Shown piece after piece: positions 1 to 5,680 of a DNA stretch of 5,680 nt. A program made the position numbers and the translations under genes. This stretch comes from a virus (lineage: Duplodnaviria > Heunggongvirae > Uroviricota > Caudoviricetes). The stretch's first letter is position 1. Each line of letters opens with the position of its first letter. The notes under the pieces are model-generated. The model made no database searches. It was not told where the DNA came from and worked only from the letters and a program-made list of their open reading frames with translations. The stretch lies in IMG/VR virus record IMGVR_UViG_2657245664_000014; one strand, 5' to 3'.

Positions 1-633
1 GATGACTTTACCCGTTATTCTAAAGATCTTGCAGATGAAGGCACCCGCTGCTTTATCGATGCCGATAATATGCGAGCCGTCAGTGTGCTTAACCTGGGTA
101 CTATTGATGAACCAGGTCACGCAGATAACACCGCCACTCTCAAACTGAAAAAGACAGCACCGTTCTCTGCCCTGTTGTCTGTTAACGGCGAGCGTAACTC
201 CCAGAAGTCACTGGCAGAATGGATTGAAGACTGGGCCGACTACCTTGTGGGCTTTGATGCCAATGGTGACGCTATTCAGGCAACAAAAGCGGCTGCGGCA
301 GTCCGTAAAATCACGATTGAAGCAAACCAGACCGCTGATTTTGAAGATAATGACTTCAGCGGCAAACGCTCCCTGATGGAGTCTGTCGAAGCGAAGACCA
401 AAGACATTATGCCAGTGGCATTTGAATTTAAATGCGTTCCGTTTGAAGGTCTGAAAGAACGTCCGTTTAAATTACGCCTCAGCATTATCACTGGCGATCG
501 TCCTGTACTGGTTCTGCGCATTATTCAGCTGGAAGCGATGCAGGAAGAAATGGCTAACGAATTTCGTGATCTGCTTGTTGAGAAATTCAAAGACAGCAAA
601 GTAGAAACCTTTATTGGTACTTTCACCGCCTGA
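1..633 (+). CDS. yfdQ: YfdQ-like prophage protein (DUF2303 family), 5'-truncated by the window edge
   Basis: The reading frame is open from base 1 with no in-frame stop before the ATG at 70, and ends at TGA 631-633. It lies directly upstream of yfdR/yfdS homologues, matching the CPS-53 gene order yfdQ-yfdR-yfdS as I recall it. The family call is from memory of YfdQ, not a search. Confidence 0.6.
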
Positions 634-645
634 TTTCATTACTGC

Positions 646-667
646 AAATGCCCCTGCGGGGGCATTT
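646..667 (+). terminator. Possible weak intrinsic terminator or attenuator hairpin after the yfdQ-like gene
   Basis: aaatgcccc (646-654), loop tgcg, then ggggcattt (659-667) form a 9-bp GC-containing stem 13 nt after the stop codon. The T-tract is short (ttt then atgg), so termination is probably partial. Confidence 0.35.
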
Positions 668-761
668 ATGGAAACGTAATTAACTCAATAATCACCGGAT
701 GGTGAGAGCTTCCTTTTAGCAGAATTCAGCGCGGTGCAGCGCATATAAAGTGGAGAACGAA

Positions 762-1298
762 ATGTCATTTATTAAAACTTTTTCCGGGAAGCATTTTTAT
801 TATGACAAGATAAATAAAGACGACATCGTGATTAACGATATCGCAGTTTCCCTTTCAAATATCTGTCGCTTTGCAGGACATCTTTCACACTTCTACAGCG
901 TCGCCCAGCATGCGGTGCTTTGCAGCCAGCTGGTACCGCAGGAATTTGCTTTTGAAGCGTTAATGCATGATGCAACAGAAGCATATTGCCAGGACATCCC
1001 CGCTCCACTGAAACGCCTTCTTCCTGACTATAAACGGATGGAAGAAAAAATAGATGCCGTAATCCGTGAGAAATACGGGTTACCCCCGGTTATGAGCACG
1101 CCTGTGAAATATGCCGATCTCATCATGCTGGCAACCGAACGCCGCGATCTCGGGCTTGATGATGGCTCTTTCTGGCCTGTACTGGAAGGCATCCCGGCAA
1201 CAGAGATGTTCAACGTGATTCCACTGGCACCGGGCCATGCCTACGGGATGTTTATGGAACGTTTTAACGAGTTATCGGAGTTACGCAAATGCGCATGA
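762..1298 (+). CDS. yfdR: HD-domain phosphohydrolase, YfdR-like (5'-deoxynucleotidase family)
   Basis: ATG at 762 is preceded by GGAG (752-755) at 6-nt spacing; the GTG at 750 used by the ORF track is less likely. The 178-aa product begins MSFIKTFSGKHFYYDK, carries an H...HD...E pattern (AQHAV ... LMHDATEAY), and its length matches E. coli K-12 YfdR as recalled. Confidence 0.85.
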   Translation: MSFIKTFSGKHFYYDKINKDDIVINDIAVSLSNICRFAGHLSHFYSVAQHAVLCSQLVPQEFAFEALMHDATEAYCQDIPAPLKRLLPDYKRMEEKIDAVIREKYGLPPVMSTPVKYADLIMLATERRDLGLDDGSFWPVLEGIPATEMFNVIPLAPGHAYGMFMERFNELSELRKCA

Positions 1299-1651
1299 AT
1301 GTTTTCGAAATGGAAGGGTTTCTTCGCGGGAAATGTGTACCGCGAGATCTGAAAGTGAATGAAACAAATGCTGAGTACCTGGTACGTAAATTCGATGCGC
1401 TTGAAGCTAAATGTGCGGCACTGGAAAACAAAATAATGCCAGTGTCAGCTGAACTGCCGCCAGCAAATGAAAGTGTTCTGTTATTTGATGCTAACGGAGA
1501 AGGCTGGCTGATTGGCTGGCGTTCTCTCTGGTACACCTGGGGACAAAAAGAAACCGGAGAATGGCAGTGGACATTTCAGGTCGGGGACCTTGAAAACGTC
1601 AATATCACTCACTGGGCAGTAATGCCAAAAGCACCGGAGAATAAGAAATGA
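1289..1651 (+). CDS. yfdS: YfdS-like DUF551 prophage protein
   Basis: ATG at 1289 is preceded by GGAG (1277-1280) and overlaps the yfdR 3' end by 10 nt. The 120-aa product matches the length of K-12 YfdS as recalled, with a C-terminal W-rich DUF551-like segment (WLIGWRSLWYTWGQ...THWAVMPKAP). Confidence 0.8.
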   Translation: MRMNVFEMEGFLRGKCVPRDLKVNETNAEYLVRKFDALEAKCAALENKIMPVSAELPPANESVLLFDANGEGWLIGWRSLWYTWGQKETGEWQWTFQVGDLENVNITHWAVMPKAPENKK

Positions 1652-1851
1652 GCGTGATAAAAACTCATACAGGAATTGTTATCACCCGAGACGGTCCGCA
1701 GGTAAAAAAACTGCACCAGACAAAGCGGATGTGGGTCGTCGGAAAAAACGAGTTTTACCACAAAGAAACCGGACGCCGCCACTTTGCAGAAAATACTCGC
1801 CGCCGACTGCTGATCGATACCATCAAGCCTATCGAGGTGAAGCATGTTTAA
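1648..1851 (+). CDS. Hypothetical small prophage protein (67 aa, basic)
   Basis: ATG 1648-1650 overlaps the yfdS stop TGA 1649-1651 (aATGa), with GGAGA at 1636-1640. It sits in a same-strand coupled chain; no recognisable domain. Confidence 0.6.
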   Translation: MSVIKTHTGIVITRDGPQVKKLHQTKRMWVVGKNEFYHKETGRRHFAENTRRRLLIDTIKPIEVKHV

Positions 1852-2083
1852 ACAGAACGAAAAATCTATCGCTCAAATTGCTGAGTATATCCCGCGTGCG
1901 TGCCGGGGTATGCAGTTGCAGGAAGCTAAAGCACGCCTGGAGAAAAAAATTGCGCTCTATATCGATGACGGCTGTGATGCTGCCGTTCTTAACGCGGCGT
2001 TCGCGCCAGCTCTTAACAGTCATACGCGAGAGTCTTTTTTTTCGTGCATCGCAGCGCAGATCCGCAAAGGAGGCAACCAGTGA
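1844..2083 (+). CDS. Hypothetical small prophage protein (79 aa)
   Basis: ATG 1844 is preceded by GAGGTG (1834-1839) and overlaps the upstream ORF end by 8 nt. Its stop TGA 2081-2083 overlaps the GTG start of the next gene. No recognisable domain. Confidence 0.55.
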   Translation: MFKQNEKSIAQIAEYIPRACRGMQLQEAKARLEKKIALYIDDGCDAAVLNAAFAPALNSHTRESFFSCIAAQIRKGGNQ

Positions 2084-2805
2084 GCGAAATTAATTACCAG
2101 GAACTGCGTGAGATAGCAAAAAAGGCAACACAAGGCGAATGGGTCGCATTTATTTCGCCGGGCAAATACGGCACGTACGCCGTACACACACCAGGTGATA
2201 ATCATCACGGAGATATTGTCGACTGGCCAGGATTCGACGAACAGAAGAACGCAGAGAACAACGCTCGTTATATCGCAGCTTTCAACCCTGAAGTAGTACA
2301 GGCACTACTGGACGAACGGGAAAGAAACCAGCAATACATCAAATCCCGCGACCAGGAGAACGAGGATATTGCTCTTACTGTTGGGAAGCTGCGCGTTGAG
2401 CTGGAAGGCAAAGACAGCAAAATAGCCAATCTTACCGCCGAACGCGATGCTCTTCGTGAAGGTGAGATGGGCGACGCTAGGCATAGCAACACACGGGCCG
2501 CAGCTGATATCTACTTCCAACTGGTCGAGGAGTGCGAAATTCCTGCTGGCGGATCTCTGGTCGAGTACGTTGACGATATGCGCGAGAAGCTGGAAGCCGC
2601 AGAGAAGCGCATTGCAGAGTTAGAAAGTGGTTCTCAGGCACAAAAGTTAGTTGAAGCAATCATTGTTGCGATAGAAAACGAACAGGAAAGGCTTTTTGAT
2701 GAAGATTACCTAATGGATTCGAAAGAATGCATTGACGTAATTCGTGAAGAAGTAAAGCGATGGAATGATTCCCGCGCCGCTGGTATTCGCATCAAAGGAG
2801 AGTGA
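2080..2805 (+). CDS. Ead/Ea22-like lambdoid early-region protein
   Basis: GTG at 2080 is preceded by a strong SD AAAGGAGG (2066-2073) at 6-nt spacing, giving the N-terminus (M)SEINYQELREIAKKATQGEW typical of Ead/Ea22-like proteins as recalled. The central region is acidic with heptad-like coiled-coil character. The track's earlier start at 2044 lacks an RBS and overlaps the upstream gene. Confidence 0.8.
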   Translation: MSEINYQELREIAKKATQGEWVAFISPGKYGTYAVHTPGDNHHGDIVDWPGFDEQKNAENNARYIAAFNPEVVQALLDERERNQQYIKSRDQENEDIALTVGKLRVELEGKDSKIANLTAERDALREGEMGDARHSNTRAAADIYFQLVEECEIPAGGSLVEYVDDMREKLEAAEKRIAELESGSQAQKLVEAIIVAIENEQERLFDEDYLMDSKECIDVIREEVKRWNDSRAAGIRIKGE

Positions 2806-2806
2806 G

Positions 2807-2998
2807 ATGAACGGACAAATATCAATTGTTCGACCAGGAGCATGTGACGATCGCGAAATACGAATGATTATTCGTCTGGCGAGGGGGAAAACAATAACTG
2901 CTCTCATTACTCCAGAAAATCTCGCATTAGCATTAACCGGAAAGTCAGACCTGCCAGTAGAGCTAAAGCTGCGAAATGTTGAGATTAAGGTGAAATAG
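2807..2998 (+). CDS. Hypothetical small prophage protein (63 aa)
   Basis: ATG 2807 lies 1 nt after the Ea22-like stop (2803-2805) with AGGAG at 2796-2800. The product MNGQISIVRPG...VELKLRNVEIKVK has no confidently recognised domain. Confidence 0.6.
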   Translation: MNGQISIVRPGACDDREIRMIIRLARGKTITALITPENLALALTGKSDLPVELKLRNVEIKVK

Positions 2999-3000
2999 TT

Positions 3001-3723
3001 ATGAATACTCTTACCAAAGAATGGTTACAGAACACGATTACCGGAATTGAGTCGATAATAGACGATAAATCGTTTGTATGTAGTGAAATAGCATTCGAAA
3101 TAGGTGTGGTTAACAACATACTTACCGCATTTAAAATTGCACTGGCATCGCTGGCAGCAGTATCGGATGAACGGGCAGCCTATGAATTATTTATGGAGAA
3201 GCGTTTCGGGGAATCTGTAGATCGCCGCAGGGCAAAAAATGGTGATAGAGAATACATGGCATGGGATATGGCGCTTGGCTGGATTATCTGGTGTCACCGC
3301 GCCGCCATGCTTCAGGGAGGCCAACCTGTAAACCAAACTTACAACTTGCCAGAATTAATCGAAGGCATGGAAGTTTCCATTGATGTAAGCACTTGTGATG
3401 CTGATTTAGGTAATCGCTATTTCGGCACCGTCACCGAGGCGTTAGAACTTGATACTGCCAAGAATGGTTACATCCTCCTGGTTCAGGACGCAGAGCCAAA
3501 CTTCGATGTAAATGGCAACTCTCCGGTAACTCCGGATAGTTGGATAAGCTGTAGTGAGCGAATGCCGGATGACGGGCAGTGGTGCGTAGTGAACACAGAA
3601 TACGGGTATTACGTGCAATGCTGGTCTGAAGGTCAAGGATGGCTTGGTGATGATATCAGCATCCCTGAATGCGATGTAATCAATTGGATGCCGCTACCGG
3701 AACCGCCGCAGGAGGTGAAGTGA
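3001..3723 (+). CDS. Prophage protein with C-terminal DUF551-like domain (240 aa)
   Basis: ATG 3001 lies 2 nt after the previous stop with AAGGTG upstream. The C-terminal segment WISCSERMPDDGQWCVV...YYVQCW...INWMPLPEPP resembles the W-rich DUF551 domain also seen in YfdS. The N-terminal ~170 aa is unassigned. Confidence 0.75.
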   Translation: MNTLTKEWLQNTITGIESIIDDKSFVCSEIAFEIGVVNNILTAFKIALASLAAVSDERAAYELFMEKRFGESVDRRRAKNGDREYMAWDMALGWIIWCHRAAMLQGGQPVNQTYNLPELIEGMEVSIDVSTCDADLGNRYFGTVTEALELDTAKNGYILLVQDAEPNFDVNGNSPVTPDSWISCSERMPDDGQWCVVNTEYGYYVQCWSEGQGWLGDDISIPECDVINWMPLPEPPQEVK

Positions 3724-4295
3724 TGAACAACTTAATGATCGACCTTGAGACGATGGGGAAAAATAAGGATGCACCGATCGTTTCCATTGGCGCGGTGTTC
3801 TTCACTCCAGAAACCGGAGACATCGGACAAGAATTTTATGCGGTTGTCAGCCTGGACAGTGCTATGGAGCAAGGGGCCACACCTGACGGCGATACCATCC
3901 TGTGGTGGTTGAAACAAAGCCCTGAAGCACGAGCTGCAATCTGTATTGATGATACTTTGTCGATCAGCGATGCACTCTCTGAACTGAGCCATTTCATTAA
4001 TCGGCACGCAGACAATACGAAATATTTAAAAGTTTGGGGTAACGGGGCCACCTTCGACAACGTAATTTTACGCGGAGCTTATGAACGAGCAGGACAAATC
4101 TGCCCATGGGCGTACTGGAATGATCACGATGTACGCACGATCGTTACGCTTGGGCGTTCCATCGGATTCGACCCCAAAATGGACATGCCCTTCGATGGCG
4201 AACGGCACAACGCCCTGGCCGATGCCCGTCATCAGGCAAAATATGTTTCCGCTATCTGGCAGAAATTAATTCCTGCCACCAGCACAGAATTATGA
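3723..4295 (+). CDS. DnaQ-like DEDDh 3'-5' exonuclease (phage-type)
   Basis: ATG 3723 overlaps the upstream stop TGA 3721-3723 with GGAGG at 3711-3715. The 190-aa product shows Exo I (MIDLETMG), Exo II (WGNGATFDNVIL) and Exo III (HNALADARHQAKY) motifs in the expected order. Confidence 0.8.
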   Translation: MNNLMIDLETMGKNKDAPIVSIGAVFFTPETGDIGQEFYAVVSLDSAMEQGATPDGDTILWWLKQSPEARAAICIDDTLSISDALSELSHFINRHADNTKYLKVWGNGATFDNVILRGAYERAGQICPWAYWNDHDVRTIVTLGRSIGFDPKMDMPFDGERHNALADARHQAKYVSAIWQKLIPATSTEL

Positions 4296-4331
4296 TTTTC
4301 CCGGGTGCAGCCGGTTTTGATGGAGAAAATT

Positions 4332-4604
4332 ATGAACACCTTGTTTTTACTGATGGCTGAATTCAATACCCCTAACATTGAACTCTCAGCAGTTAGCCAA
4401 AAGTACTTTGGCATGAGTCCAGCCACGGCAGAAGCAAAAGCAAACGCTTGTAAGTTGCCCGTTCCAACATATCGCATCGGCACATCACAAAAAGCAAAAC
4501 GTTGCATCAATATTCAGGATCTTGCGGAATACATAGACAAAAGGCGAGAAGAAGGGCGTGCTGAGTGGGAAAGGGTCAGAACCCATAAACAAAGGCTCAT
4601 TTAA
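4332..4604 (+). CDS. PrtN-family / excisionase-like DNA-binding protein (putative Xis or regulator)
   Basis: ATG 4332 is preceded by GGAG (4322-4325) at 6-nt spacing. The N-terminus MNTLFLLMAEF and the core ...KLPVPTYRIGTSQKAKRCINIQDLAEYIDKRREE resemble the pyocin-activator PrtN family as recalled. It is the last plus-strand gene before the terminator, where xis normally sits. Confidence 0.65.
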   Translation: MNTLFLLMAEFNTPNIELSAVSQKYFGMSPATAEAKANACKLPVPTYRIGTSQKAKRCINIQDLAEYIDKRREEGRAEWERVRTHKQRLI

Positions 4605-4609
4605 ATAGA

Positions 4610-4647
4610 ATATGAATAAACCCATCCAAAGATGGGTTTATTCATAA
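4610..4647. terminator. Bidirectional intrinsic terminator between convergent transcription units
   Basis: A perfect 17-bp inverted repeat, atatgaataaacccatc (4610-4626) and gatgggtttattcatat (4631-4647), surrounds a 4-nt loop caaa. It lies between the 3' ends of the plus-strand chain (stop 4602-4604) and the minus-strand module (stop 4638-4640), with AT-rich flanks on both sides. Confidence 0.7.
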
Positions 4648-5099
4648 TGTTGAAGAGCAGCGAGTATCAGTTTTTTATGCCGTTTAACCATAGTTTTAGA
4701 TATCTCAACTGCACATCGAACTTGTCTCATACAATGATCTGTAATGCGACCTTTTAGCACGTCACCATATTGGATGGCTATTTTCTCTTTAATAATTTCA
4801 AGATCGAAAGCAGCATGAGCCTCAATGCAATTAACAAATGAGTCCCATTTAAGAAAATCATGGTCCTCTCTATTAATTTCGACCTGACAAGCCATAAGAT
4901 CATTGTTTCTCTTAATAAATTCATTTATATCTGAATTTATTAGAAGAACTAAAAGAGGTTCACAGCAAACAACCACCATATATTTTACTTTAGGTGGGGT
5001 CGTAAAATCACAATGAAGATACAATACATCACCGGGTGATATACCTCTTTCACGACTAAAATTAGCCTTAAAATCAGGAGGGAAACAATCACCCAGCAT
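4638..5099 (-). CDS. Uncharacterised ~153-aa protein, putative partner (candidate toxin/effector) of the Panacea-domain protein
   Basis: The minus-strand ORF has an ATG at 5099-5097, or a TTG at 5108 overlapping the upstream stop (5105-5107). It is immediately downstream of the Panacea-domain gene with no intergenic space. AT-rich codon usage; no recognised domain. Confidence 0.6.
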   Translation of the reverse strand: MLGDCFPPDFKANFSRERGISPGDVLYLHCDFTTPPKVKYMVVVCCEPLLVLLINSDINEFIKRNNDLMACQVEINREDHDFLKWDSFVNCIEAHAAFDLEIIKEKIAIQYGDVLKGRITDHCMRQVRCAVEISKTMVKRHKKLILAALQHYE

Positions 5100-5104
5100 A
5101 AGTA

Positions 5105-5632
5105 TCAATATCCGTTCTTCAGATAATCCAGTATTAATTTGCTATTTTTTAGCTGTGCAACTATCGATTCCAAAGACATCTCACCATTGTGATCTGCCTG
5201 TTCCCATGCCGCGTCATGGCTCATGGTTCTGATAGCTTCAAAGGACATGTTTCCAAGCATCGCGATAGACTTATCAATACACTCTAAATCTGAGTCACTA
5301 AAAAAGTCTTCATCAGCTTCACGGCTCGGCACAATCGTCATACCTGATACAGAAAATGCTTTTCGCACAGAATCGACATCACAACCATTAGGAATGTAAC
5401 GTCCATCTCCACGAGCAATTTTTATAATATCGTATGTGTTGCTTGCTACAGGCCCATCCTTCATAGCGTTATAGTGATCGCCCGTTATGAGGCGTCCAAA
5501 ACTTTCAAGGTGAAACCTGTCAGCATAATAAAGAATTTTTCCGACATGATAGATATCTGGGATCGGTGCTTTAGAGGCGACGTACAGAATGGCCTCTAAA
5601 GCCTTTTCTGAATCAAACCTTACATTTAGCAT
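5105..5632 (-). CDS. Panacea/DUF4065 (GepA/SocA-like) domain protein, putative antitoxin; 5' end uncertain
   Basis: The core motif HVGKILYYADRFHLESFGRLITGDHYNAMKDGPVASNTYD matches the conserved K-[IL]-LYYA...G.P...W/AMK.GPV signature of DUF4065 as recalled. The frame stays open to the window edge at 5680. In-frame ATGs lie at 5647 and 5632, the latter with a GAAGGG-like RBS 7 nt upstream, so the start is either of these or beyond the window. Confidence 0.7.
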   Translation of the reverse strand: MLNVRFDSEKALEAILYVASKAPIPDIYHVGKILYYADRFHLESFGRLITGDHYNAMKDGPVASNTYDIIKIARGDGRYIPNGCDVDSVRKAFSVSGMTIVPSREADEDFFSDSDLECIDKSIAMLGNMSFEAIRTMSHDAAWEQADHNGEMSLESIVAQLKNSKLILDYLKNGY

Positions 5633-5680
5633 CAATACACCCTTCATCCAAACAACATCGTCAAGCTCTGGCAAATGCAA

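Follow-up and report, generated by a model that had tools for sequence, protein, structure and literature searches.

An AT-rich block in dusA-integrated Escherichia coli prophages is likely a PanA/PanT-type toxin-antitoxin cassette in a polymorphic slot

Toxin-antitoxin pairs built from a Panacea-domain antitoxin (PanA) and a small toxin (PanT) have been catalogued by Kurata et al. (2022; PMC8832971). Direct PanA:PanT complexes formed in the five pairs tested by pull-down, and two MazF-like PanT proteins have been validated as translation inhibitors. Another toxin cluster, T5, includes no pair recorded there as a validated toxin-antitoxin system: the single T5 protein tested, from Chryseobacterium bovis, scored 'Toxic', that is, toxic in E. 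coli, and was unrescued by its own PanA. Here we describe a related locus at positions 4605-5680 of a 5,680-nucleotide stretch of DNA (the window) from the Caudoviricetes record IMGVR_UViG_2657245664_000014. This AT-rich, minus-strand block is probably a PanA/PanT-type cassette, with a toxin of cluster T5, in a polymorphic prophage slot. At least five alternative cassettes, this one included, are found at the excisionase (xis)-proximal end of a prophage integrated at dusA.

A preliminary description of the window, made from its letters alone, had proposed that the minus-strand module is AT-richer than the early region before it, and the profile bears this out. Direct counts and a sliding profile gave a GC content (guanine plus cytosine) of 0.474 across 1-4604 and 0.383 across 4605-5680, and a single-breakpoint scan placed the maximum-likelihood break at 4584, with a score equalled in 1 of 500 shuffles of 50-bp blocks; the difference across the break is thus significant. 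Two AT-rich runs singled out beforehand, at 4900-4960 and 5120-5160, were likewise recovered (GC 0.213 and 0.293). The fall is deepest over the toxin gene (0.348 for the whole open reading frame, ORF), and GC climbs back to ~0.43 over the 5' half of panA (0.413 overall). Third-position GC is also low in both genes (0.227 in the toxin gene and 0.369 in panA, against 0.40-0.54 in ten early-region ORFs), and the shift is therefore not merely an amino-acid effect. No other 1.1-kb stretch of the complete prophage in strain DA33137 (38.5 kb; mean GC 0.508, sd 0.049) has a GC content as low as the 0.385 of the cassette. The break had been said to coincide exactly with the terminator, which holds to within ~30 nt, as the breakpoint falls ~27 nt before the hairpin.

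The compositional break also coincides with a break in homology. Relatives devoid of the module align up to window position 4582 or 4593, and again from 8119 or 8163 of locus L001, equivalent to window 5723 or 5767. The full cassette thus measures ~1.14-1.18 kb and extends 43-86 nt beyond the window end.

It might be argued that local mosaic noise, or merely the change of strand, accounts for the GC drop, and that the two ORFs form no functional unit. The early region does have GC dips of its own: positions 1-4600 had been called roughly balanced, but 300-bp windows there fall as low as 0.387 (near 561-860) and 0.39 (near 2900-3200), within dips at 500-900 and 2800-3200 (~0.39-0.42). The early operon is itself mosaic, because its matches to relatives over 1-4582 come in 2-5 pieces with differing intervening genes. 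GC content is independent of strand, however, and the break described here is significant, the deepest in the whole prophage and placed at a homology breakpoint. Together with the conservation of the gene pair described below, these points leave the noise explanation with a negligible probability.

The block carries two genes in the same orientation, the second of which starts 5 nt past the panA stop codon (Table 1). In RefSeq the products are labelled 'Panacea domain-containing protein' and 'hypothetical protein'.

Table 1. Features of the cassette and its flank within the window (positions count from the first letter of the window).
Feature	Positions	Strand	Support
Cassette A, in-window part	4583..5680	.	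GC breakpoint 4584 and homology ends
panA, 175-aa antitoxin with Panacea (DUF4065) domain	5105..5632	-	Pfam PF13274
panT, 153-aa putative toxin, MazF/Kid/PemK fold with extra C-terminal helices, cluster T5	4638..5099	-	
Perfect 16-bp hairpin, two-way terminator for convergent prtN and panA-panT	4611..4646	.	Folding and terminator scan
panA-panT 5' leader	5633..5680	-	
prtN-family excisionase-like gene, last gene of the conserved backbone	4332..4604	+	PF11112, E 3.9e-23; PHROG 1300 'excisionase', E 8.6e-40

PanA matches the Pfam family SocA_Panacea with an E value of 5e-20 and 72.9 bits (gathering cutoff 25.7), covering 110 of 113 profile positions, and PHROG 1281 matches it likewise. No recognised domain was found on its N-terminal side; the Panacea domain stands alone. 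Among the defence models of PADLOC-DB v2, PanA had zero matches. Its start is annotated variously across RefSeq genomes, giving genes of 555, 570 or 582 nt (L021 2001-2555, L001 7501-8070 and L020 2001-2582). Comparison with relatives favours the ATG at window 5632 over an upstream TTG, because homologues from Klebsiella, Enterobacter and a metagenome start at the equivalent methionine and are 172-175 aa long.

Since the Pfam family bears the name of SocA and Caulobacter SocA has the same Panacea domain, PanA could act in the same way, as a type VI antitoxin that hands its toxin to ClpXP for continuous degradation and does not block it directly. We regard this as very unlikely. The NCBIfam equivalog model NF047745 (SocA_antitoxin) gives PanA a score of 17.8 bits, far under its cutoff of 190, the toxin in the window has a MazF fold, and the pull-down complexes of the five PanA/PanT pairs were stable, which points to type II direct neutralisation (Kurata et al., 2022; PMC8832971).

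The putative toxin has the MazF/Kid fold with its beta-barrel core and belongs to a large family. An exhaustive profile search recovered 1246 representatives at 50% identity (E <= 1e-3), and a word-index search gave 41 clusters, every one of 148-157 aa. Across 132 family sequences K39 and S87 are invariant, and conservation reaches 90% or more at G23, F32, K37, N55, S56, F82, L83 and C91. When the toxin was aligned manually with EndoA (its sequence checked against PDB 4ME7), K39, N55/S56 and S87 appeared to sit at EndoA R25, T48 and S73. Comparison by hhalign of the 132-sequence profile with single sequences or a shallow profile on the MazF/EndoA side gave a plausible register at non-significant E values (0.1 against E. 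coli MazF, 0.016-0.07 against EndoA). A homologue search seeded with EndoA yielded no useful MazF profile, as all of the matches listed (120) were at least 94% identical.

Family databases place the toxin less readily. It has no Pfam match at E <= 0.01, and PF02452 (PemK_toxin) is absent among the families listed for the 132 members at E <= 1, the best of any family reaching E 0.005. Searches of PDB chains with the toxin profile returned nothing relevant, NCBIfam and PHROGs gave no usable match, and PADLOC-DB v2 returned only PDC-M02B (E 0.017, 12 bits), which is not usable either. The assignment to T5 comes through a Photorhabdus homologue (P0033) that is 53% identical to the window toxin and clusters at 90% identity with P0192 (WP_054475897.1); in Dataset S1 of Kurata et al. 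(2022; PMC8832971) the latter protein is assigned to pT5/T5 and paired, as putative toxin, with a PanA. The window pair, an E. coli/Salmonella member, was not found under its E. coli accessions in the examined part of that dataset.

For a T5 representative, Dataset S1 gives HHpred probabilities of 99.5% for EndoA/MazF and 98.5% for CcdB (PMC8832971). A toxin acting as a CcdB-like DNA gyrase poison, or on some other non-RNA target, would still form a PanA-neutralised pair and would lead to DNA damage or replication arrest. This we consider improbable. If the locus is a PanA/PanT system, ribonuclease (RNase) activity of the toxin is the outcome towards which we lean.

The pair is conserved well beyond E. 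coli. In the five contexts inspected, PanA lies directly upstream of a toxin homologue, on an Idiomarina chromosome, a metagenomic island, Klebsiella-associated phage contigs and an Enterobacter hormaechei prophage among them, and each of these cassettes has a lower GC content than the DNA around it. Both ORFs and their order are kept down to 42% identity in other genera, which, like the size of the toxin family, argues against two ORFs that have no joint function. On the Klebsiella-associated contigs (L012-L014 3467-4462) the pair follows the tape-measure gene directly, inside a phage tail module, which shows that both genes travel together between very different places in phages. On the metagenomic, integrase-linked island (L009/L010 2120-4471) a ParE/helix-turn-helix pair adjoins the PanA-T5 pair upstream of AlpA-like genes, forming a small toxin-antitoxin cluster. 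No counterpart of the cassette DNA was found in the plasmid collection, and the sole match among deposited phage genomes was 157 nt at 75% identity in a Serratia phage.

A census of 5426 complete E. coli genomes showed that the position of the cassette is variable. The exo-prtN backbone is present in 767 genomes, and the window cassette (cassette A, PanA with the T5 toxin) in 46; the module is thus not universal in related prophages, and four or more other gene sets are found in its place. Cassette B (79 genomes) combines the PanA WP_000287252.1 with a 182-aa toxin that has a hydrophobic C-terminal segment, cassette C (208 genomes) a 190-aa PanA with a toxin and a 57-aa ORF, and cassette D (358 genomes, O157:H7 included) a 177-aa orphan with the 57-aa ORF. 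Cassette E, seen in 2 genomes, has a YafO-family toxin and a 179-aa ORF. The PanA of cassette B is the experimentally validated E. coli PanA of Shiga toxin-producing E. coli (STEC) O31. Strain C311 carries a PanA identical to the STEC O31 one (L003 4987-5460, minus strand) at the dusA prophage end, in the slot that cassette A fills in the window; the validated STEC O31 pair is flagged 'NotPhage' in Dataset S1 (PMC8832971).

The other cassettes differ in how far their contents can be recognised. Cassette D is the commonest occupant of the slot, and its 177-aa protein WP_000956557.1 (minus strand, L002 12031-12564 and L005 4589-5122) has no Pfam match at E <= 1 and no recognisable partner toxin or antitoxin. 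The 57-aa ORF (MKDQKATKPQVKFDTMKAF...; GC ~0.48) separates the prtN terminator from the cassette in C and D (minus strand, L004 4439-4612 and L002 11661-11834); cassettes A, B and E lack it, and it matches no family. The toxin of cassette C (L004 4652-5038, minus strand) is homologous to that of cassette A, a relation newly noted here. RefSeq gives it as 128 aa from a GTG; its homologues in other genera are 131-150 aa long and begin ~12 residues earlier (M..FQPYRKGTVLAP...), and the annotated start is therefore probably too short.

The variable slot and the homology break fit the earlier proposal that the module is independently acquired cargo, whereas a recent acquisition is not indicated. 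An E. hormaechei prophage is colinear with window 3723-5651 at 73% nucleotide identity and carries the cassette together with exo and prtN. Amino-acid identities to the window are 84% for PanA, 77% for the toxin, 87% for PrtN and 74% for Exo. The cassette has thus diverged about as much as the backbone genes, which makes it an old allele of a polymorphic slot that has long accompanied this backbone. The Enterobacter copy shows the same drop in GC (0.424, against 0.509 in the adjacent early genes). The break marks cargo that is foreign or evolves separately, and is no sign of a recent insertion. More generally, a GC break can be sharp without the acquisition being recent, as the same cassette and break are kept here across ~27% nucleotide divergence and in another genus.

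The slot lies at one end of the prophage. In DA33137 the prophage spans from dusA and the integrase gene to a 105-bp remnant of the dusA 5' end (dusA'), and the cassette sits between prtN and this remnant, which begins 147 nt past the window end. The same context was seen in all 46 cassette-A genomes sampled. The preliminary description had put the module between the xis-like gene and the presumed integrase/attachment-site end: prtN and dusA' do flank it, but the integrase gene is beside intact dusA at the far end of the prophage, ~38 kb from the cassette. It follows that xis, cassette, attP and int would be neighbours, in this order, only on the excised circle. In some strains (L020 2583-2940; L004 5641-6113), cassette-A genomes among them, the dusA' remnant and the DUF2713 gene yjbM are missing and the cassette abuts zur, which suggests a deletion at the prophage-chromosome junction.

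On the prtN side, the last ~7 codons of prtN (4583-4604) vary with cassette type in the junction alignment. The hairpin that follows folds at -23.5 kcal/mol on one strand and -23.0 kcal/mol on the other (z ~-8; 0 of 200 shuffles equally stable), is picked up on the minus strand by the terminator scan, and contains in its stem the toxin's final three codons and stop codon. A hairpin stands directly after prtN in all five cassette types, each with its own version: the outer AAACCC...GGGTTT core alone is common to them, while inner stem and loop differ. These hairpins could be independent terminators or a preferred recombination point. On the other side, the sole promoter-like site for the pair (TTGACC-18 nt-TAAGAT, minus strand) lies just beyond the window, at L001 8124-8095, equivalent to 5728-5699; 3 promoter-like sites were found against 5.2 expected by chance, and this evidence is weak.

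These features suggest how the PanA/PanT cassette might work. The two genes would be transcribed leftwards as one operon, probably from the promoter just beyond the window, with transcription ending at the two-way hairpin; their 5-nt spacing points to coupled translation. The stand-alone Panacea protein would bind PanT and hold it inactive, and free PanT would most likely cut RNA and halt translation, because it has the MazF/Kid fold. If infection by another phage or loss of the prophage released the toxin, the cell would arrest, and the outcome would be either abortive-infection defence or prophage stabilisation. A bolder and rather doubtful extension is that the prtN-attR interval of dusA prophages is a dedicated exchange site at which enterobacterial prophages shuffle abortive-infection modules, that T5 is a very large MazF-like RNase branch with its own cleavage specificity, and that the PanA holding it in check senses phage infection. 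The bounds of such an exchange site may be the prtN 3' end with the terminator core on one side and a conserved segment of ~60 bp before dusA' on the other.

These observations give a predicted function to two genes that carry only RefSeq labels, and place the predicted PanT cluster T5, MazF-like and with >1200 representative sequences, in an easily studied E. coli prophage. They also identify a single prophage position whose occupants, across 767 E. coli genomes, comprise five or more interchangeable toxin-antitoxin-like cassettes, a validated PanAT among them. The slot alleles thus offer a natural near-isogenic panel on which protection of the lysogen from other phages, or stabilisation of the prophage, by such cassettes could be assessed.

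Among described systems, the window pair is closest to PanA/PanT, with which it shares an antitoxin-first bicistron, a stand-alone Panacea protein, a small downstream toxin and an association with prophages (Kurata et al., 2022; PMC8832971). Its toxin family includes the T5-listed WP_054475897.1, and the MazF/EndoA fold agrees with the HHpred result for T5; the slot polymorphism seen here is not described in the parts of that paper drawn on. The STEC O31 PanAT resembles cassette A in occupying the same prtN-dusA' slot as a PanA-first operon on the same strand. It differs in its toxin, a membrane-targeting and unrelated protein of 182 aa with a hydrophobic C-terminal segment, and the two PanA proteins are alike (~33% identity) over a short segment only.

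Compared with the type II toxins MazF, PemK, Kid and EndoA (PF02452), the window toxin lacks the Pfam match and has ~35 extra C-terminal residues that form helices. MazF-type toxins are partnered by MazE, PemI or Kis, whereas the window toxin is partnered by a Panacea protein. At the putative active site it would carry Lys and Asn/Ser where MazF-type toxins have Arg and Thr. The antitoxin domain, the logic of the pairing and the toxin cluster T5 are thus already catalogued. Newly reported here are a member in an E. coli prophage, the assignment of its fold, the toxin homology that links cassettes A and C, and the account of the slot.

The slot also invites comparison with the P2 and P4 hotspots, which Rousset et al. 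2022 are said to have described as variable accessory-gene ('moron'/defence) sites at the ends of temperate phages and satellites. The dusA slot belongs to a different phage family, integrated at dusA and with a yfdP/Q/R-type early region, and its contents are mostly toxin-antitoxin-like pairs that matched no PADLOC defence model. Like those hotspots, it combines a fixed position and conserved backbone flanks with alternative AT-rich cassettes that are transcribed independently.
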